A stretch of DNA of 24,533 bases from a plasmid. The stretch lies in the sequence record NZ_CP021968.1; one strand, given 5' to 3'. The notes beneath the pieces are model-generated. The model did no database searches. It saw nothing but the letters and a program-made list of their open reading frames with translations, and was not told the DNA's origin. This document shows, piece after piece, positions 2,022-24,533 of this stretch. The first letter of the stretch is position 1. Each line of letters starts with the position of its first letter. The translations under genes and the position numbers were made by a program.

Positions 2022-3317
2022 TTATGACTTAGCCAAAGGGGTTCCGTCGACGTGTTGTGTATCTTTTTTGAGGATAAAGAATGCATAGATGCCAGCAATC
2101 AAGACGATGACAGCAATGACATGGAATGTGTTTTGATAGCCTACACGATCTCTGAGAATGCCCAATGGCGTTGATAAAATAACCTGCCCAATCTGGGCCG
2201 CAATTTGGAAACCAATCATGTATAGAGAAGCCGAGAGTTTGGTATTGAAGTGAAGGGTAAAGTATCTGAAAATTGATAACGTAAACATAGGTACTTCGAG
2301 AGAGTGCAGCATTTTAATTGCCGAAACGGCGTATGGATTGGCGTTAAATCCGCAGAGGCCAATTCGCAAGAACATAATAGCGACACCAATCATGAGTGTC
2401 CGTTTGACACCAACTTTTTGCATCACAATTGGTACGATACCTAACATTAGTGCTTCAAAGAATACTTGAATACTGTTGAGCGTGCCGTATGTCTGTTGGC
2501 CAACTGCTACACTTGAGAATAACTTTGTATAGAAATCAGGAAACATTTGTGAATCAAAAATATTATAAAAAGTCCAAGTGAACATGATGAAAATAATCAC
2601 CTGCCATAATTCAGACATTTTTAAAAGACGTAACATATCTGACAGCTTTGGTACTGAATCTTCGCGGGCTAGCGTTTTGACAGCATGATTGGCATCACGC
2701 TCTTCTTTTGGCACCCAGAATATAAGAACCAATAATAGTAGCACACCAAATAATGAACCAAACCAGAAATTTAAATGAGGGTTAATCACAAACAAAACAC
2801 CGGCAAGTAGCGCCACAATAGCGTATCCGAAGGATCCCCAAGCGCGAGCTTGACCATATTCAAATGAGAATACACGACTAAATCGTTCTGTGACCGCTTC
2901 TAGTATGCCAACTGCCGATAAAAAACCTGTCGATAGCACGATAGCACCGACCCACATACCGATAGCAAAATGATTGACGAGGAGAGGGGCATAGACCCAA
3001 ATAAAAAATGGACCAATTAGCGTAGATATAACAGCGTTAAAAATAAGTAAGTGTCGCTTGATGAATAGTTTGTCTTGAATGGTGCCATAAACAAACATTA
3101 AAATTAAACTGATCAATGAATTGGCGGAAAAAATAGTCCCAACTTGACTTCCAGATAAGCCCAGACCATTTGTGTCGGAAGTCAACCATAGTTGGTAGAA
3201 GCTCCACCAAATACCCCATGACGCAAAGAACAACAACATGCTAGTTGAACTTTGTAAATAAGACGCGTTTTTAAAGGTGCGCGTGCCTTTTTGATTATGA
3301 TTCATTAGCAGATCCAT
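2022..3317 (-). CDS. MFS oligosaccharide:H+ symporter of the LacY/CscB/RafB type (TC 2.A.1.5), probable sucrose permease
   Basis: 431 aa, polytopic. It aligns along its length with E. coli LacY, e.g. FEYGQARAWGSFGYAI vs FEFGRARMFGCVGWAL, and KMLHSLEVPMF…RYF vs KTLHMFEVPFL…KYI. It lies immediately upstream of the GH32 gene on the same strand. Confidence 0.85.
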   Translation of the reverse strand: MDLLMNHNQKGTRTFKNASYLQSSTSMLLFFASWGIWWSFYQLWLTSDTNGLGLSGSQVGTIFSANSLISLILMFVYGTIQDKLFIKRHLLIFNAVISTLIGPFFIWVYAPLLVNHFAIGMWVGAIVLSTGFLSAVGILEAVTERFSRVFSFEYGQARAWGSFGYAIVALLAGVLFVINPHLNFWFGSLFGVLLLLVLIFWVPKEERDANHAVKTLAREDSVPKLSDMLRLLKMSELWQVIIFIMFTWTFYNIFDSQMFPDFYTKLFSSVAVGQQTYGTLNSIQVFFEALMLGIVPIVMQKVGVKRTLMIGVAIMFLRIGLCGFNANPYAVSAIKMLHSLEVPMFTLSIFRYFTLHFNTKLSASLYMIGFQIAAQIGQVILSTPLGILRDRVGYQNTFHVIAVIVLIAGIYAFFILKKDTQHVDGTPLAKS

Positions 3318-3458
3318 TAACCTTTCTTAAAATGGCGTTCTAAAATGTAAGCGTTTACACAAAAGATTATAACTGCAATTTTTTAGTATGTCAACCGATT
3401 GGCAGTTTTATTTTTTAGTTACAGTTTTGTTGACTTATAAATAGTAAAAATAAAAAAC

Positions 3459-8040: not shown

Positions 8041-9083
8041 GGTAGATTGCAAATTTAATCCGAATTTTTTGACAAATTAGTCAGCATCACTTGGTAAGGT
8101 GTTTGCCAGTTAAGTACTTTAAGGGGGCGCTGGTTAATTTCGAGTAACGTCGTTGTTAAATCTTGAGCACTAATGTGCTCAAAACAAGTCCCCTTAGGGT
8201 AAAAATAACGTAAGTTCCGATTGAATCGTTCATTACTGCCGCGTTCAGCGGGCGTGTAAGCATGGCAGTAATAGGTATGAATACCGTATTGTGGTTCAAA
8301 TGACACTAGATTGCTAAACTCAGTTCCACGATCGACAGTAAAGGTGTGTACCGGTCCCTTAAAAGTTGTTAGAAACATAGTTAGGGCTTCATTAACAGTC
8401 GCCGCTGTCCGATCTTTTAATCGGTAAGCCCAAAGAAAACGTGATTTGCGATCAATTAGCGTTAATAAAGCAACCTTGCTATGTCCACGAGGTCCAACCA
8501 CTGTATCTATTTCAAAATCACCGATGCGGTTACGTTGGTTAATCACAATTGGTCGTTGTTCAATTGAACGCCCTAATGATTGATTATATTTAGAACGTTT
8601 GTCAAGGTTACGCCGTTGGCGTAGCCCATGTTCAGGTAGTTCACTCAAGGAGAATTCAATTTTCCCCTGATATAGCCAATTATAAATAGATTTAGTGGCT
8701 AGTTTAAGCTCATGCGCAATCACTTCCGGTGACCATCTTAGACGTAAATGGTTTAGAATGGTTTGCTTTAATTTGGCATTCAGTTTAGTTTTTCGGCCAC
8801 AATGCGCCCGTTTATATTCAGCGTTGGCCTGTGCTAATTCAGCTTGATAAGGTTGACAACGAGATAATTCATAAGAAATCGTAGACGGAGATCGTTTTAA
8901 CCGCTCAGCCATTTGGATATTGGTCAGTCCTAGCTCACAAAAGGTTTCGATTTTAATTCGTTCAGAATAGGTTATACTAGACAAAAGATCAGCTCCTAAA
9001 AAATGGGTTTGTGGTAAACACCATTTTAAAGGAAGCTGATCTTTTTTGTCCGAACAGCGTTCGGATTAATTTTACAATCTACC
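8041..9083 (-). mobile_element. IS30-family insertion sequence, copy 1, intact (1043 bp)
   Basis: Terminal IRs ggtagattgcaaatttaatccgaa (8041-8064) and ttcggattaattttacaatctacc (9060-9083). Flanking ATAG duplication (8037-8040 and 9084-9087) within an IS3 end. Confidence 0.85.
8055..8984 (-). CDS. IS30-family DDE transposase
   Basis: 309 aa. N-terminal HTH (…LGLTNIQMAERLKRSPSTISYELSRC…). DDE region (…DFEIDTVVGP…FTVDRGTEFS…HAYTPAERGSNERFNRNLRYF). TTG start with AGGAG RBS 8 nt upstream. Confidence 0.9.
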   Translation of the reverse strand: MSSITYSERIKIETFCELGLTNIQMAERLKRSPSTISYELSRCQPYQAELAQANAEYKRAHCGRKTKLNAKLKQTILNHLRLRWSPEVIAHELKLATKSIYNWLYQGKIEFSLSELPEHGLRQRRNLDKRSKYNQSLGRSIEQRPIVINQRNRIGDFEIDTVVGPRGHSKVALLTLIDRKSRFLWAYRLKDRTAATVNEALTMFLTTFKGPVHTFTVDRGTEFSNLVSFEPQYGIHTYYCHAYTPAERGSNERFNRNLRYFYPKGTCFEHISAQDLTTTLLEINQRPLKVLNWQTPYQVMLTNLSKNSD

Positions 9084-9399: not shown

Positions 9400-10488
9400 T
9401 TAGACATCGGACTCCCCTTTAAAATAAAGAGGTACCGCTACTTTTGAGACTGAATCATTTCTCAAAGAAACCATAGACGCTAAGAACACAACAAATACAA
9501 ATATTCCCAGAGCCATGTATGTGGTTCTAAAACCAACCGAGTCATACATTATTCCCACTAAAGGTGCAAACACAATAGTACCAAATTGAATAAAGAATTG
9601 GTAACCAAACAAATAAAGCGTCGATGATAATCTTGATTCAAAGTGCAAATCTAAATACTTAAAGACTGCAATCAGCAGTACTGGTAATTCAAATGAATGC
9701 ATCAGCTTAATGGTTGCAATTAGCACAGGTCCCACAACAACACCTGACAAAGTAATACGACTTGCCATAATAAATGCTGCAAAGAGCAATGATTTTTTAG
9801 GCCCAATCTTATTAACTATACTTGGTGCAACAAACATCATTCCCGCTTCCAAGAAGACTTGGAGGGAATTGAGATAACCGAACATTTCATTGCCTGTCTT
9901 TAGATTAGCAAATTGATTTGCAAAATAACGCGGGAATTGTTGATCATAAACTCCGTAAACACATACAATGCACAAAGAAAATAGTGCAAAAGCCCAAAAA
10001 TCTTTTAGCTTAAGCAACGTTAGAATATCGTGGAAAGAAACAGAACTGGCTGCTTCTTTCTCTGTATCGGACACTGCTATCTTAGTAGACATCACAATTA
10101 CCAATAAAATAGCACCACTGGCCGAAGCTAACCAAAAATTATAATCTGGATTGATATTATAAACAGCTCCAGCAAAAAAGGTCGCGGTTGCCCAGCCCAG
10201 AGACCCCCACATCCGCGCTTTTCCATATTCGAAATGATACTTTCGTCCTGTTTTTTCAATATAAGATTCCAATGGACCCATTGAAAATGATGAGCTTAGA
10301 ATTATGGCACCTATAATTGCACCAAAAATGAAATTGCTTCTCAATAGTGGTTCATATACAAAAATAAAAAACGGCGCAGTTAGCGTGAGTGAAATCGCAA
10401 AGAAATATAATAAATTCTTTCTATTACCAAATTTATCAGAGATATAACCAAAAATTGGTTGAGAAAATAATCCAAATACTGCATTTAT
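9400..10488 (-). pseudogene. Second LacY-type (OHS family) sugar permease, 5'-truncated by IS6 insertion
   Basis: The frame stays open from 9400 up to the IS6 IRL at 10489. It translates as …FSQPIFGYISDKFGNRKNLLYFFAISLTLTAPFFIFVYEPLL…FEYGKARMWGSLGWA…KLMHSFELPVLLIAVFKYL…. This aligns with LacY from about residue 55 onward. The first TM helix or helices and any promoter are missing. Confidence 0.8.
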
Positions 10489-11818: not shown

Positions 11819-12148
11819 TTATTTGTTTTTCAAACGTGCATCACGCGCTTCTAGTGTATCAGTCTGTAAGGAAAATGACTTTTGTTCACTACTACTTAGA
11901 TTATCTATAAATGCTTGTAGAGCTAGATCTAAAGCACTCTTTTGGCTGTCTGCATATCCTAAGTTGGCTATGGCTTGTAATTTATTCCTTGAATGGTTGC
12001 TGATTTTCAAGTTTGTGTCGAATGATACGCTAGTAGCTGGTACGGCTGGTTTCTTTTCTGTTGTAAAGTCTTCTGCCTTGGCAATTACTTTAGGGGCAAT
12101 ATTTTTTTTATTTCTGTTTGATTGGATGAGTGAATTAGCCATGTTCAA
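11819..12148 (-). CDS. Small partition / centromere-binding protein (ParG/ParB-like, putative RHH)
   Basis: 109 aa directly downstream of parA, overlapping it by 14 bp. Basic, low-complexity N-terminal tail followed by a strand-helix-helix-like segment (VSFDTNLKISNHSRNKLQAIANLGYADSQKSALDLALQAFI). Typical type Ib layout. Confidence 0.5.
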   Translation of the reverse strand: MNMANSLIQSNRNKKNIAPKVIAKAEDFTTEKKPAVPATSVSFDTNLKISNHSRNKLQAIANLGYADSQKSALDLALQAFIDNLSSSEQKSFSLQTDTLEARDARLKNK

Positions 12149-12944
12149 TGTCCTCTATTCTTTTTAGCATTTCGTCTGTTACTTTTTCATAAACAGCAAA
12201 GACATTTTTGTCGTGTTTACTATTAAATGTTATACCTGTAATGCCATATCTTTTTATTCGTTGCATTGCGTGTATTTTAGTGTCAAGAATATTACTTTTA
12301 CCAAACGTCTCAGTTGCATTGATAATAGTTGCTTCATCGACTGGTGCACCAGCTTGCATTAGTACGGCCAATATACCAATTAGTTCTAGTCTAGGTGCTT
12401 CGTAAGTGTCTATTACTTCGTCTTGAATATACTTGATAAATGTTTCTGCTCCGGTAAAGCTTGCTTCATGTGTTTGCATGACAATTAAACTATAATCTGA
12501 AGCGTATAAGGCACTATCTGTGATTAATGAAATTGTTGGTGGAATATCAATTATTATATAGTCATAATTTATTTTCACTGGAGTTAATAGTTTATCAAAT
12601 TGTTTTACTCGATCATTATAGTCCTTAAACCTCTCCATATATCTTGGATATAAGGAGAAATCAGGAGCAGAAGCCATTAGGTCTAAATTTTCCATGATGT
12701 TTATTATAGAATGAGATAAATCCCCTTCCTCTATACTAGACATTAAAGATTTATCAAACGTCACCATTTGATCAGTTAAATTCGCTTTTGTCTTTAGATA
12801 TAAAGTTGTTGCGTTTCCTTGGGGGTCTAAGTCTACTAAAAGAGTTTTAAAGTTTCTTTTACTTAATTCTAGGGCAACCATTGTGGAGTTTGAAGTTTTT
12901 CCCACACCACCTTTGAAGTTCCCAAACGTTATAACTTGTGTCAT
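12135..12944 (-). CDS. parA: ParA/Soj-family partition ATPase
   Basis: 269 aa with the deviant Walker A (FGNFKGGVGKTSNST) and …LLVDLDPQGNAT… RBS AAAGGG upstream. Confidence 0.9.
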   Translation of the reverse strand: MTQVITFGNFKGGVGKTSNSTMVALELSKRNFKTLLVDLDPQGNATTLYLKTKANLTDQMVTFDKSLMSSIEEGDLSHSIINIMENLDLMASAPDFSLYPRYMERFKDYNDRVKQFDKLLTPVKINYDYIIIDIPPTISLITDSALYASDYSLIVMQTHEASFTGAETFIKYIQDEVIDTYEAPRLELIGILAVLMQAGAPVDEATIINATETFGKSNILDTKIHAMQRIKRYGITGITFNSKHDKNVFAVYEKVTDEMLKRIEDIEHG

Positions 12945-12960
12945 CTTTACCCTTTCTTAA

Positions 12961-13210
12961 TGTAGTGCTGTAGTTCATTATTTCTAGAACTAATGAATAC
13001 TATAGTGTAGTAATGCTAGTAATAGATAGTCTATCAGTGCAATAGTGCAAGTTAATTAAAAATAAGTCCATATAATGTTATTATAACAGCATTTCATGAA
13101 AGTACAATAGTGCAAGTATAAAAACACTACATAGTACTTAGACTATGTAGTGTTAGAAATAGATAGTGTTAGAAATAGATAGTTCTAGTGTGCTATAGTG
13201 CTATAGTGCT
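12961..13210. repeat. Iteron / operator-rich region upstream of parA: candidate centromere (parS-like) and/or replication iterons
   Basis: caatagtgcaag ×2 (13040, 13106). tgttagaaatagatag ×2 in tandem (13152-13183) plus aatagatagtc (13021). gctatagt tandem (13193-13209). 11-bp-arm palindrome cactacatagt-acttag-actatgtagtg (13125-13152). ttctagaa palindrome (12983-12990). Confidence 0.7.
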
Positions 13211-13223
13211 AAGCGCAAAAGTT

Positions 13224-13253
13224 TTGACATTTTGCTTTTGTTGATGATACAAT
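13224..13253 (+). promoter_or_regulatory. Strong sigma70-like promoter with extended -10, reading into a non-coding structured region
   Basis: -35 ttgaca (13224-13229), 18-nt spacer, tgatacaat (13245-13253). No credible ORF follows for about 800 bp. Confidence 0.5.
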
Positions 13254-13690
13254 GACAATTGAATCAAGGAAAAAAGAATAAAAGAAAAGCCACCAAGGAT
13301 TGCCGTCCTTGATAGCTACGTAAATCTTATTTGTTTTGGTTAACGTAACTATATTATATAACATAACCTTTGTGTTGTAAATGTGGGTGATTTCAAAAAG
13401 AGTGAAGCCAAACACTTTAAGGGGTAGGGCATATATGACGTGTAGGGGGTAGTTACCTAGAGTAACTCGGAAGAGCCAAATCGCTGTATATGGTATACGA
13501 AAAAATAGACAAGTGCCATTTTCCCAGACACTACTGTACAAAAACATTTGGGTGCTACACAAACAATCCATACTGGGCGTGTAGTAGGGTGAGAGCGACC
13601 ACAAACGGCTCGGCAGGTAAAACGGTGTCTACGGACACAGGGCTTGTATTTAAGTTGTAGCGCGAAAAAAGATAATAAATATAGTGATAC

Positions 13691-13713
13691 AGCGCCAATA
13701 AGGGCGTTTTTTT
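13691..13713 (+). terminator. Weak intrinsic terminator candidate closing the non-coding transcript
   Basis: agcgcc-aataag-ggcgtt stem (4 GC pairs plus wobble) followed by TTTTTTT. Confidence 0.3.
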
Positions 13714-14072
13714 ATTGGTTTAATGAATAAAGTAATTAATTAAAGCAGGCGGGTAAAACCAAAGCTTGTATGGATAAGGTGACGGACGACTGAACGATCG
13801 GTCAAGTGTTTGTTAACAGTAAAGTTTTCTTCTTCCCAAAACAAGGGGGAAACTAATTTCAGTTCAAAACTCCCTCACTCTCAATCAAGCATTTGTAACT
13901 TCCTGTGTCAACAAATTTTTATGGTTCTTCTAAAGATAAATTCCAGTTTTTCAGACAATTAGTTTATTATTACTTATTCTATTAGTATGATATGTCTATT
14001 TTAAGTACTTTATAAGAAAATATAGTATAATAATATATACAAAGATATTGACGTATATACAAGGAGTTTCAA

Positions 14073-14366
14073 ATGACTGCATTAGTAAAAAATAAACAGT
14101 TTAGTTTTCGTACAAATGATGAATTACTTGTTAAAGCGCAAAAGATTGCTGCTGCTGAGCATTTTGATATGGCTACAATTTTTAATTCAGTTTTAGAAAA
14201 GATGGTGGCTCAAGATGATGTTCCTGTTGAGCTAATTGATGAAAAACAAAAACGTCAAGATAAAATTATTCAGTCTTTGTATACTGAAATAGACCAGGGT
14301 TATCAGGACTATAAAAATAATCGTGTAAAAGGGATTGATGAGGCGTTTTCAAAGTATGGCGCATAA
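14073..14366 (+). CDS. Type II antitoxin, RelB/DinJ-like
   Basis: 97 aa (…FSFRTNDELLVKAQKIAAAEHFDMATIFNSVLEKM…), DinJ-like. RBS AAGGAG. Overlaps the downstream toxin gene. Confidence 0.6.
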   Translation: MTALVKNKQFSFRTNDELLVKAQKIAAAEHFDMATIFNSVLEKMVAQDDVPVELIDEKQKRQDKIIQSLYTEIDQGYQDYKNNRVKGIDEAFSKYGA

Positions 14367-14676
14367 TATTTTGATTACTGCTGCTGCGCAAAGAGATTTA
14401 GATGATATTTTTGAATATATCAATGAAAAATTTTTAGCCCCACAAGCGGCAATTAATACATTAAGTAATATCAAATTATCAATTTTAAAAATAGCTGAAA
14501 TGCCAGAAATAGGCATCGATGTTTTCAAGAGATTGCATAAAAAATTTAAAATTTCAGAAACATTAAGGATGATTCCTGCTGGAAATTATTTAGTATTTTA
14601 TATTATTTCAGATCAAGACTTGGTTATTTTACGAGTCCTTTATCAACGACGAAACTGGTTAGAGATTTTTGGTTAA
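14356..14676 (+). CDS. Type II toxin, ParE/RelE superfamily
   Basis: The internal ATG at 14356 gives MAHNILITAAAQRDLDDIFEYI…YLVFYIISDQDLVILRVLYQRRNW, a ParE/RelE-like fold signature. The 11-bp overlap with the antitoxin is typical TA coupling. Confidence 0.65.
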   Translation: MAHNILITAAAQRDLDDIFEYINEKFLAPQAAINTLSNIKLSILKIAEMPEIGIDVFKRLHKKFKISETLRMIPAGNYLVFYIISDQDLVILRVLYQRRNWLEIFG

Positions 14677-14760: not shown

Positions 14761-14947
14761 ATTATATTTTGCTCGTATACTGAAAATCCGGACTGCTTTA
14801 TTTCTAGGGCATAATCCGAGATAATCAAGTATAGGAGTTTTTTTATATTATGAAAGCTAAGCAATACTCAACAGAATTTAAGTCATCAATTGTTGCCTTG
14901 TATAACGAGGGACGTTCTGCTAATTCTCTAGCCAATGAATACCATTT
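14761..14947 (+). mobile_element. IS3-family type 2, 5' fragment (left IR plus orfA N-terminus)
   Basis: tgctcgtatactgaaaatccggactgctttatttctagggcataatccgagataatcaagtataggag… is near-identical to 20341-20525. The orfA start at 14850 reads MKAKQYSTEFKSSIVALYNEGRSANSLANEYHL and then diverges, with a stop at 14967-14969. Confidence 0.85.
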
Positions 14948-14998
14948 GAACCAGAAACAATTCAATTAATCAGTTATTGGGTAAGAACCCCAGAACAA

Positions 14999-15283
14999 AT
15001 GAGATCATTTATTGGCATAATATTAAATGCAAGAAAAGATATTCAAGCTGATATAGAAAAACAAACAGGACGTCCAGTAACAATTATCATGGATATGGAA
15101 CCAGAATTACAAAAGGGAATAACGACTACACTTAGAAGATATTTTAAAAGCATTAGAAATACAGATAATAAAAACAAAAAAATTAATAGTCCTGAAAATT
15201 ATCTGTATATCTCAATGAAGAACTACTTTGGATATTGGTATAACTCTGAAATGGCACAAAGAAACAAGGAAGCGTCTAATTAA
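14999..15283 (+). CDS. Hypothetical protein, possibly the 3' remnant of a gene cut by the IS3 fragment
   Basis: 94-aa ORF. Its frame stays open upstream to about 14942 (…PFEPETIQLISYWVRTPEQ-MRSF…), i.e. into the IS3 junction. No family recognised. A weak hairpin and T-tract follow at about 15284-15302. Confidence 0.25.
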   Translation: MRSFIGIILNARKDIQADIEKQTGRPVTIIMDMEPELQKGITTTLRRYFKSIRNTDNKNKKINSPENYLYISMKNYFGYWYNSEMAQRNKEASN

Positions 15284-21650: not shown

Positions 21651-22345
21651 TAAGAAAAATTTATAGATTTGCTGCTAAAACTTAGCCAAAAGAAGGTCGT
21701 TAATTTAAATAATGAGCAATGTGATTGTTCCCATTAAAGAATTCTATTGGTATGTGAGCTAGATAGGGTAAGCCGTAGTGATTAATGTAGATCCAAGATA
21801 GTAAAGGATGTCAAGCATCTAGAGAAGTTTCCTGTTATCCTAGTAGGTAAAAATGAAAATTTGTCGTGTAAGATTACTAGTAATTGAACAGTGTTGGATC
21901 CAGAGATAATAGTTTTCATATCAAGTTCAGCATGGGCTACGGTTAATTTTATTAATATCTAGTCTGTAGGCATCATGATAACAGCCACTTAGAAATCTTT
22001 CATCTAAATTTGAATCGTGTAGCAGTTCACTGAAAGAAATACCGTACGTTAATATAATTTTAAACAACGATTTGTTGATATAAAAATTTTTTTAACTACA
22101 AGCGCAGTTTAAATGATAACAAAGTAACAGAATGGGAATAATCCGGTTCATTGGATGTCTGAGTAATTTTTAGTGCAATAAATAGTCAGCTCCATTCTCT
22201 AGGTTGCTAATGTTCTAATTCAAATTTTGCAGTTACGTCATTAAATTAAAATGAATTTAATACTTATATTCTTAATATTAATTTTCAAAGGTGACCAAAG
22301 CTTATGCAGTAGCGATAGTTTATCCCAGTACAAGGAGAAAATAAT

Positions 22346-22672
22346 ATGGTAAATGAAATTGAGTTAACAACAGAAAATTACGAACAGATTGTGTCAAAGG
22401 GGATAACCATAGTTGATTTTCGTGCGGATTGGTGTGCCCCCTGCAGAATGATGGATTCTGTTCTAGAAAAGGTAGCAGAAGACCCATCATACAAAAATGT
22501 TAAATTTGGTAAGGTAAATGTAGATAAAAATATGGAGCTGAATGTTCGTCACTCTATTTCTGGGATTCCAACTTTTTTATTTTACAAGGATGGAGAAATT
22601 ATTGACAGATCAGTAGGTCTGCAAACAAAGAATACTGTTAAAAGTATGTTAAATAGTTCATTGAATAAATAG
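22346..22672 (+). CDS. trxA: Thioredoxin
   Basis: 108 aa with the WCAPC active site (FRADWCAPCRMM). RBS AAGGAGAA. Confidence 0.9.
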   Translation: MVNEIELTTENYEQIVSKGITIVDFRADWCAPCRMMDSVLEKVAEDPSYKNVKFGKVNVDKNMELNVRHSISGIPTFLFYKDGEIIDRSVGLQTKNTVKSMLNSSLNK

Positions 22673-24042: not shown

Positions 24043-24533
24043 GGTAGATTGAAAAATTAAACCGAACATTTGAATAAAAAAGCCGCAGAGCCTTTAATGG
24101 TAATTGACTAAAAAAACCATAAAGTAACAATAAAGTAACTGTGATCCATGACTAGTTTATCATCTTCAGAACGTACTGTCATTCAAACAATGCTTCAATT
24201 GAATTATTCTGTTCGTGCCCTTGCTTGCTTCATTAACCGTTCACCCCCGACTATCTCTGTTGAAATTCATCAAGTGGCGTCTTATAGCGCCAACGCAGCC
24301 AACAAGTTGACAGAAATGAAATGCCATCTTCGTGGTCGGCATACGATGCTAACACCTGATATTGCTGTTTTAAAAGGGTCACCACAGACAGCTTCTCATG
24401 TACCAGGACTATCCTTTAAATCCATCTATAATTAGATTAATAGCGGTCTATTGAAACTTAACGTTGGTAATCTACTCGACAGAGGTACTCGTCAGAAGAG
24501 GAAGAGCGACGGTAGGCGACAAGTGTTTGTTCA
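24043..24533 (+). mobile_element. IS30-family element, copy 2, 5' portion (continues at 1..522)
   Basis: The left IR ggtagattgaaaaattaaaccgaa (24043-24066) resembles the copy-1 IR ggtagattgcaaatttaatccgaa. The transposase N-terminus follows. Confidence 0.7.
24148..24533 (+). pseudogene. IS30-family transposase, N-terminal part, with a premature TAG
   Basis: HTH (…LNYSVRALACFINRSPPTISVEI…). …SFKSIYN then TAG at 24433-24435 where copy 1 has TGG (Trp). The frame continues (INSGLLKLNVGNLLDRGTRQKRKSDGRRQVFV) to the window end and joins position 2 in frame. Confidence 0.75.

Follow-up and report, generated by a model that had tools for sequence, protein, structure and literature searches.

How does a partition-equipped plasmid of 24.5 kb replicate when none of its genes encodes a functional replication initiator (Rep)? 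This question is raised by the plasmid record NZ_CP021968.1, of which a stretch of 24,533 nucleotides (nt), referred to here as the window, carries a conserved non-coding element between the partition gene parA and a toxin-antitoxin (TA) pair. Based on the comparative evidence presented below, we propose that a family of Leuconostoc theta plasmids does without an initiator protein and uses the region at ~13224-13915 as its basic replicon; replication would depend on RNA, and copy number would be controlled by an antisense RNA. This is the reading that we favour, with moderate confidence. That the element is the replicon we consider likely, and that its long RNA works in cis, both as pre-primer and to open the origin, in other words the priming step, is advanced tentatively, as a proposal that falls slightly short of an even chance.

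The window corresponds to a Leuconostoc plasmid, and the query region shows 100% identity to L. kimchii NKJ218 (NZ_CP037936.1) and 99.9% to L. mesenteroides NZ_CP014613.1, a record of 24,244 bp. It closes as a circle, the frame of a frameshifted IS30 transposase pseudogene running on from the last bases into the first (24148-24533 joined to 1-507), as an earlier interpretation made from the letters alone (hereafter the sequence-only reading) had also concluded. The same reading had found no open reading frame (ORF) resembling a Rep, a statement that holds for functional initiators and needs one correction. When 30 ORFs and, from the six frames of the window, another 95 stop-to-stop segments (50 amino acids or longer) were searched against Pfam, a single Rep-related match was obtained, a truncated RepA C-terminal domain, and no other Rep family; in particular, no Rep_3 match that would betray a Rep_3/RepB protein was obtained in the Pfam scans of the window. 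This match belongs to a 3' remnant of a repA gene of the RepA_N family (14939-15283, + strand), situated outside the conserved system, in which the ORF 14999-15283 (stop-free from 14942) comprises a complete Bac_RepA_C domain (PF18008, E=1e-26, profile positions 2-95 of 95). The remnant is 96.5% identical to the C-terminus of an intact "replication initiator protein A" found in three other Leuconostoc plasmids, including NZ_CP028257.1. Homology to the latter starts within repA, so that ~693 bp of 5' coding sequence are gone, including the N-terminal DNA-binding domain; an intact RepA with this RepA_N domain is absent from the window, where Bac_RepA_C alone is left. The central part of repA, in which RepA_N replicons have their iteron origin, is also missing. 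An N-terminal fragment of an IS3-family OrfA (14850-14966, 39 amino acids; HTH_Tnp_1, E=1e-4) abuts the breakpoint, and the loss thus appears to be associated with an insertion sequence (IS). Because positions 14939 to ~19400 of the window share 93% identity with the RepA-bearing conjugative plasmid NZ_CP028257.1, we read the plasmid as a mosaic in which the RNA-element module seems to have taken the place of a RepA replicon. Since the only Rep-related match is a truncated C-terminal domain, the window is judged, on its sequence, to contain no functional initiator gene.

A blastn comparison with other plasmids, suggested by the sequence-only reading, was rewarding: when 72,556 PLSDB plasmids were searched by megablast and blastn (including a distant mode), positions ~13271-13931 were found to be kept at 75-95% identity in 74 plasmids, 73 of them from Leuconostoc; in the distant mode, the matches were Leuconostoc records only, apart from one 35-nt match in Lactiplantibacillus. 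The element itself extends over ~13260-13915, and conservation stops at about 13915-13931 in all copies. The PLSDB gene table, which lists neither RNA genes nor pseudogenes, shows nothing under it. A scan with an exact 20-mer of one genome per species yielded 14 stretches, and the element is present in 13 of these, namely 11 on Leuconostoc contigs (2.8-51 kb) and two on contigs of one metagenome-assembled genome that bears the label Lactobacillus. The remaining stretch, from a Bacteroidetes contig of 383 kb, was a chance match. Metagenomes scanned with a 20-base pattern provided 17 further copies, two more matches (L044 and L056) having been discarded as chance matches to the search pattern. 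Dozens of the plasmids with the element are complete and circular, with sizes of 16-59 kb, and in genome assemblies it is found on plasmid-sized contigs only.

Its genomic surroundings are constant on one side and variable on the other. Each of the 18 loci inspected has a divergent parA, followed by a small parB, whose start is 300-400 bp away from the element, and the far-side neighbours change from locus to locus (RelB, ImmA/IrrE, a BRCT-domain protein, IS6, an AAA ATPase, DUF6414 or a hypothetical protein). When six complete circular plasmids were compared (the window, pLEUM1, CP042398, pWK40-2, CP042395 and LN890333), ParA was the sole protein common to all six (42-59% amino acid identity), together with the non-coding DNA corresponding to 13280-13613. 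The non-coding block is therefore the only practical candidate for the origin, as the sequence-only reading had proposed for the region as a whole, except that the part which it called iteron-rich follows the ParA type and falls outside the conserved block. Eight of the 74 element-bearing plasmids were inspected in full, and no theta-type Rep is annotated in any of the eight. In strain KM20, which also harbours plasmids with the element, the element-free pLCK3 and pLCK4 each encode RepB, and NZ_CP028257.1, which has RepA, shows no element in the 8.2-kb stretch examined. The backbone of NZ_CP028257.1 is syntenic with that of the conjugative plasmid LN890333, where the element is found at the position of repA, ahead of hyp61...mobQ. 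Among the plasmids inspected, the element thus appears to be confined to those without Rep.

The conserved block has the properties of a structured RNA transcribed from the + strand, and as far as sequence and structure models can tell it contains no protein gene. Its GC content is 37-54% within 13350-13850, vs 16-33% in the flanks, and GC skew is positive (0.35-0.46) over most of the transcribed block, corresponding to a G-rich RNA. No conserved ORF was found anywhere in the element; the GC-enriched non-coding stretch of ~450 nt described by the sequence-only reading is thus real, but the conserved unit is longer, continuing to ~13915 past what that reading took for its terminator. A 131-amino-acid ORF on the minus strand (13209-13604) was rejected as a gene, with no Pfam match and with 2- and 4-nt indels breaking it in other copies, and the LN890333 copy has no stop-free stretch longer than 53 amino acids. 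The sole recurrent small ORF, of 23 codons (MWVISKRVKPNTLRGRAYMTCRG, 13381-13452, + strand), is present in 18 of 21 copies; it encodes a basic and not a hydrophobic peptide, lacks a ribosome-binding site, is truncated in LN890333 and undergoes mostly non-synonymous changes, and is probably a by-product of RNA conservation. A type I toxin of the hok/sok or Fst-like kind was ruled out, the sense RNA having no conserved small hydrophobic ORF.

The fold was derived with RNAalifold from an alignment of 21 distinct copies (A2) and comprises 112 pairs, with 99.0% of cells paired. Changes on both sides affect 24 pairs, vs 12.7±2.0 in column shuffles (0 of 500 reach 24) and 2-6 in controls with slid partners, and the covariation score is 0.211 vs 0.04-0.06 in the slid controls. 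As the structure had come from the same alignment, it was also predicted on 17 main-clade copies and scored on the four divergent ones: 62 of 99 double-changed cells (63%) stay canonical, vs 19-38% in slid controls. The consensus energy is -210 kcal/mol for the + strand vs -164 kcal/mol for the reverse complement, and G-U cells greatly exceed A-C cells (352 vs 14), which indicates that the + strand is the folded one. This covarying fold, reached by the covariance folding that the sequence-only reading had recommended, has no counterpart among described RNA families: Rfam 15 gave zero matches at the gathering threshold over the window, and chance-level matches only at E<=10 over 12900-14100.

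We delimit the conserved sense RNA approximately to 13260-13915, with a best-supported core at 13280-13852 (+ strand, as are all the helices below). Its 5' end forms two hairpins. In hairpin 1 (helix 2, 13294-13311), whose complement is the stem of the predicted antisense terminator, the pair 23:32 alternates between GC (14 copies) and AU (7 copies), and the loop reads TTGCCG, CGCCAA, CGGCAA, CTGCAA, CTGGAA, CGGGAA or TTGCAG. Hairpin 2 (helix 3, 13317-13347) shows UA/CG and AU/GC/GU exchanges and a hypervariable loop, the sequence of which is unlike between co-resident plasmids. Further downstream, a terminator scan identified a hairpin at 13691-13708 followed by T7, the weak terminator already seen from the letters alone. 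It overlaps an alternative hairpin (helix 17, 13695-13703 with 13710-13718), one arm of which is the T-run, and the region of both is enclosed by helix 15 (13640-13645 with 13762-13767). In the divergent clade, CCAAUAA/UUAUUGG of helix 17 becomes CCAUCA/UGAUGG, amounting to three compensatory pairs, and the terminator stem and T-run are lost. Past the T-run, helices 15, 18 and 19 have G-U pairs specific to the + strand; helix 19 (13825-13852), for instance, a hairpin of the 3' domain which also scores as terminator-like, displays a UA/CG exchange, 43 G-U cells and no A-C cells. Because of this strand specificity, and because the terminator is not kept in the divergent clade, the sense RNA probably extends to at least 13852, and possibly to ~13915. 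The folding energy of the 3' domain is similar on both strands (-47.5 vs -43.6). At the 3' edge of conservation, the motifs TCCCTC (13871-13876), AAGCAT (13887-13892) and TGTCAA (13906-13911) are invariant in 21/21 aligned copies and directly precede AT-rich DNA (16-24% GC); this zone is possibly one of RNA-to-DNA transition or of unwinding. On the minus strand, TGTCAA reads TTGACA, accompanied only by a poor -10 box (TGcTTGATT) 17 nt off.

Signals for the synthesis of two convergent transcripts are also conserved. The strong promoter noticed by the sequence-only reading, TTGACA-18-TGaTACAAT (13224-13253, + strand), agrees with the consensus at 11/12 positions and has a TG extension, which places the predicted start of the sense transcript at about 13260. 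In all 17 copies for which the upstream flank is available, a perfect TTGACA, a spacer of 17-18 nt and a TAnnnT box precede the conserved block by 25-59 nt, and this promoter is present despite unrelated surrounding sequence between plasmid groups. On the minus strand, a promoter located inside the element (TTTACA-17-TATAAT, 13381->13353, 11/12 positions) has invariant hexamers and a gapless spacer in the 21-copy alignment; of 30 copies, 29 show its exact pattern and one has TACAAT instead. Next comes a terminator (13317->13288) made of a 12-bp stem and then TTTCTTTT, and the + strand A-run at 13280-13288 would be conserved because it encodes the U-tract of this terminator. The predicted product is an antisense RNA of ~65 nt (13346->~13280, the ends being approximate), whose complement is found at nt ~20-85 of the sense RNA and whose predicted folding energy is -18.1 kcal/mol (z = -4.3); it is thus predicted to overlie both 5' hairpins. 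On the basis of the promoters, the terminator and the covariation, both RNAs are predicted. The sequence-only reading had envisaged an origin served by an RNA, be it a primer, a control RNA or a counter-transcript, and the comparative data reinforce this idea.

The part of the element under the antisense RNA is also where the copies diverge most. Mean pairwise identity in the antisense-overlap stretch is 78%, vs 91.5% and 84.5% in the two that follow it, making it the most variable part of the 5' two-thirds; the changes are located in the two hairpin loops, the stems being held by compensatory or wobble changes, and 43 copies comprise 21 variants. Many strains harbour two or three element-bearing plasmids, and the antisense-overlap sequence differs in 9/9 same-strain pairs, an outcome expected by chance with P ~0.4. 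For instance, pLCK1 and pLCK2 share 83% identity in the antisense-target region and 98% in the rest of the element, and an L. litchii pair shows 82% vs 95%. Such variation is consistent with an incompatibility determinant.

Conservation, the lack of coding potential, + strand covariation, promoter and terminator signals for both RNAs, and sharing among Rep-less plasmids were all computed here, and the following scheme would account for them. From the strong constitutive promoter at 13224-13253, a G-rich, structured non-coding RNA of ~600-650 nt would be transcribed toward the AT-rich zone, and in cis would form a persistent RNA-DNA hybrid serving both as pre-primer and for origin opening. Host enzymes would then process and extend this hybrid, RNase H or RNase J and DNA polymerase I (Pol I) acting before the PriA/DnaD/DnaB primosome. 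The convergent internal promoter (13381->13353) would drive the ~65-nt antisense RNA, which would pair with the two 5' hairpins and, by blocking the 5' domain or causing it to refold, determine both incompatibility and copy number; the loops of these hairpins would thus define compatible plasmid lineages able to coexist two or three per cell. We favour a cis-acting pre-primer because there is no initiator, the promoter is strong, a G-rich RNA is directed toward an AT-rich zone and an antisense RNA covers the 5' hairpins. The machinery required for R-loop-primed theta replication exists in Firmicutes, as in pAMβ1, where extension by Pol I is followed by the PriA/DnaD/DnaB primosome. According to this scheme, the element would be both necessary and sufficient for replication, and the antisense RNA would have a copy-control role. 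The general proposition, that a structured cis RNA of ~600 nt checked by a 65-nt antisense RNA wholly replaces Rep in large partition-equipped Firmicute plasmids, is plausible to us without being quite probable.

Several observations weigh against this scheme. Its functional claims are all drawn from sequence, and the element has no sequence or Rfam similarity to RNA I/RNA II of ColE1. In the main clade, the terminator-like hairpin and T7 stand ~200 nt before the end of conservation, a feature unneeded by a simple run-through primer. Plasmid-wide GC skew gives no origin signal in this IS-rich mosaic, and the co-residence pattern described above is not significant. The Rep status of the family rests on the eight plasmids inspected of 74 and on a gene table without pseudogenes and RNA genes. 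Moreover, the element-bearing plasmid pLCK1 encodes a Rep_trans-domain protein. It lies inside a Tcp-type conjugation module and MOB-suite gives the relaxase type as MOBT, so that we regard it as the putative MOBT relaxase of the transfer module; Rep_trans-type proteins could, in principle, support rolling-circle replication.

These reservations call for a comparison with other explanations. The element might be an origin that depends, at the level of DNA, on a host protein (DnaA or another) as initiator, with transcripts that only activate or regulate it and prime nothing. Rep-less origins of the pLS20 type are thought to use host DnaA (PMC8557374); here, the 3' domain folds without a strand difference in energy, its invariant TCCCTC, AAGCAT and TGTCAA could bind a protein, AT-rich DNA lies past these motifs and a terminator-like signal lies ahead of the domain. 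However, the element has no conserved DnaA box, the single one-mismatch box (13769-13777) being lost in the divergent clade and the count over the window being that expected by chance. Furthermore, ~450 nt of + strand-specific covariation are hard to square with an RNA that is regulatory only, and the strand-specific G-U pairs continue in helices 15, 18 and 19 past the T-run. We therefore hold an origin of this kind to be unlikely, if the most serious of the rivals. The sense/antisense pair could also be a maintenance or regulatory module, type I TA-like or based on another non-coding RNA, travelling with par while the true replicons are diverse and unrecognised. A long structured RNA overlapped at its 5' end by a short antisense is indeed a hok/sok-type layout too, and the element always adjoins stability genes (parAB, often a TA pair). 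Yet no small ORF is conserved, the 23-codon ORF being basic and without a ribosome-binding site; the element recombines independently of ParA type; and since nothing else is common to the six Rep-less plasmids, each would need a cryptic replicon of its own. This makes a maintenance module improbable.

Two further possibilities have, in our opinion, only a very small chance of being correct. The sequence-only reading had left room for a replicon that has decayed and is maintained within a co-integrate or a chromosomal island, to which an assembly artefact, or a RepA remnant helped by a co-resident RepA plasmid, may be added. The truncated repA 1 kb downstream and the closest record, NZ_CP037936.1, which is entered as "linear" and contains the region in duplicate, would suit such a decay. 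The distribution of the element on plasmids and plasmid-sized contigs, the strong selection, both purifying and compensatory, that acts on it across 74 plasmids (mostly complete circular records) and the circular closure of the window do not, and the repA remnant, which has no N-terminal DNA-binding domain, was found in the window-type plasmid only among the plasmids compared. That the conserved block is the origin of transfer (oriT) of mobilizable Leuconostoc plasmids is just as doubtful. Mobility typing classified 61 of the 74 plasmids as mobilizable, and little is known of the oriTs of plasmids from Leuconostoc (bioRxiv 10.1101/2024.01.30.577996). Against this, the element occurs with MOBV, MOBQ and MOBT relaxases as well as without any (12 non-mobilizable plasmids), is linked to parA and not to relaxase genes, and with its ~650 nt, promoters on both strands and RNA-type G-U covariation is unlike an oriT.

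If the RNA-dependent replicon is accepted, its nearest functional parallel would be ColE1 (class B theta). Both lack a plasmid initiator, and in both a long structured RNA (~550-650 nt; a predicted one in the present case) would start at a strong promoter and head for the presumed origin; both have a short antisense RNA, here predicted from sequence, whose promoter lies inside the element and which is complementary to 5' stem-loops; and the antisense target is the part that varies among co-resident relatives. The differences are nevertheless substantial: the antisense RNA is ~65 nt long with one or two hairpins vs 108 nt with three in ColE1, no rom gene is present, and a terminator-like hairpin occurs inside the conserved block. 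ColE1-type plasmids are proteobacterial, small and multicopy, whereas the host here is a Firmicute and the plasmids measure 16-59 kb and have active partition. The element would thus be analogous to ColE1, and not homologous. The Inc18 plasmids pAMβ1 and pIP501 (class D), whose initiation requires that the origin be transcribed and involves an R-loop, extension by Pol I and a PriA primosome, with copy number under antisense control, are closer as regards their Firmicutes host range. However, they need RepE/RepR, and their antisense RNA acts by attenuation on the rep mRNA leader; no rep ORF is located in or after the element, where the downstream genes vary by plasmid.

Rep-less theta replicons beside partition modules have precedents in Firmicutes, namely pLS20 (PMC8557374) and pTE15 (PMC9743546). 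The class E theta plasmid pLS20 of Bacillus relies on a Rep-less module of ~1 kb beside a partition operon, restricted to one genus and of unknown mechanism (PMC8557374). The element resembles it in being Rep-less, genus-restricted and next to partition genes, but there is no DNA similarity (a PLSDB blastn with the element gave no Bacillus match), the conserved DnaA boxes of pLS20 are missing, and no covarying or antisense RNA is described for pLS20 in the literature examined. The unclassified theta plasmid pTE15 of Limosilactobacillus reuteri has a minimal origin without a Rep ORF near a truncated RepA (PMC9743546), and is thus similar to the window as a lactic-acid-bacterium plasmid with a Rep-less origin and a truncated RepA nearby. 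It is set apart by its description, an origin of ~0.3 kb with DnaA boxes and AT-rich iterons and no reported RNA element (PMC9743546), and no L. reuteri match to the element was obtained in the PLSDB blastn. The Leuconostoc plasmid pTXL1, a possibly Rep-less replicon, was not used as a precedent, as a paper citing it credits one of its proteins with a putative replication role. No description of the element or of Rep-less Leuconostoc plasmids was found in the literature.

RNA-only, Rep-independent initiation is textbook knowledge for ColE1 in enterobacteria and, to our knowledge, has never been demonstrated in Gram-positive bacteria. The few Rep-less theta origins of the latter, such as pLS20 and pTE15, are mechanistically unexplained, and the element is a defined candidate, supplying a covariation-supported fold, predicted promoters for both transcripts and natural variants that resemble compatibility types. 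If our proposal is correct, it would represent a new class of Gram-positive replicon and could be the missing mechanism behind pLS20-like Rep-less origins. It would also explain the lack of a genuine MOB-suite/PLSDB replicon type on the element-bearing Leuconostoc plasmids inspected, provide Leuconostoc with a small replicon of food grade and with sets of compatible vectors, and reveal a class of large structured RNAs, borne on plasmids and absent from Rfam.

The partition cassette adjoining the element consists of a small ParB-like gene (DUF5388, 11819-12148, minus strand; PF17363, E=3e-25) and of parA, encoding a ParA/MinD-type ATPase (12135-12944, minus strand; Pfam AAA_31/CbiA/ParA) and transcribed away from the element. 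Between parA and the sense promoter, the repeats and palindromes reported by the sequence-only reading are indeed present, in a field at 12961-13215 which comprises repeat families D1-D4 and palindromes I9 and I16. It includes a 16-nt tandem repeat, TAGTGTTAGAAATAGA, at 13148-13201, a run of the 8-nt repeat TATAGTGC at 13186-13212, four copies resembling AGTGCAATAGTGCAAGT and a perfect palindrome with 13-bp arms at 13123-13154. The latter also scores as an intrinsic terminator on the minus strand (13-bp stem, then TTTATACTTG), and may be a stop for antisense read-through or a ParB site. The ParA proteins found beside the element form at least six groups, with 37-62% identity between groups, each with its own upstream repeats; the repeat field is related within a ParA group and unrelated between groups, regardless of the RNA-element clade. 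The ParA group of pLEUM1, for instance, which comes with repeats of the TTTATAAA type, occurs with both clades, and in most plasmids the homology breakpoint falls between the sense promoter and 13271-13280. In small-ParA systems, such repeats usually serve as centromere and operator. Because they follow the ParA type and fall outside the conserved block, the repeats at 12961-13215 are probably the partition centromere and parA operator and not Rep iterons; iterons bound by a Rep were ruled out, as the repeats co-vary with the ParA group and not with the element, and there is no Rep to bind them. MOB-suite assigns rep_cluster_1503 to NC_010470.1, NC_018698.1, NZ_LN890332.1, NZ_CP037938.1 and NZ_CP042398.1, and rep_cluster_1510 to NC_010466.1 and NC_016820.2. 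These labels appear to track ParA protein identity (e.g. WP_012304962.1) and not a Rep gene, which suggests that ParA genes are being typed as replicons; they were accordingly rejected as evidence for a Rep gene.

Other features of these plasmids deserve mention. On the right flank of the non-coding region, the window has a RelB/ParE pair (14073-14676). In the closest record, NZ_CP037936.1, a 25.5-kb entry, the whole parA-element-TA-zeta block is found twice (8178-8938 and 21686-22445), probably through an assembly duplication of a ~13.5-kb stretch. Two element matches each are also present in NZ_LN890332.1, NZ_CP013017.1, NZ_CP014602.1 and NZ_CP103384.1, which may be co-integrates or dual-replicon plasmids. 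Many other element-bearing plasmids have, ~90 nt past the element, a conserved GC-rich block (AACCACGGGCGAGCTTAACTGTTGTGGTGGCGGTTGG...; around 12900-12990 in locus L003) and, near the element, a gene for a small BRCT-domain protein (11535-11816 in L003 and 3138-3419 in locus L025), both absent from the window. Finally, the window encodes a LacY-type sugar symporter in one full copy and in one 5'-truncated copy next to IS elements (2022-3317 and 9400-10344), beside a GH32 hydrolase gene.

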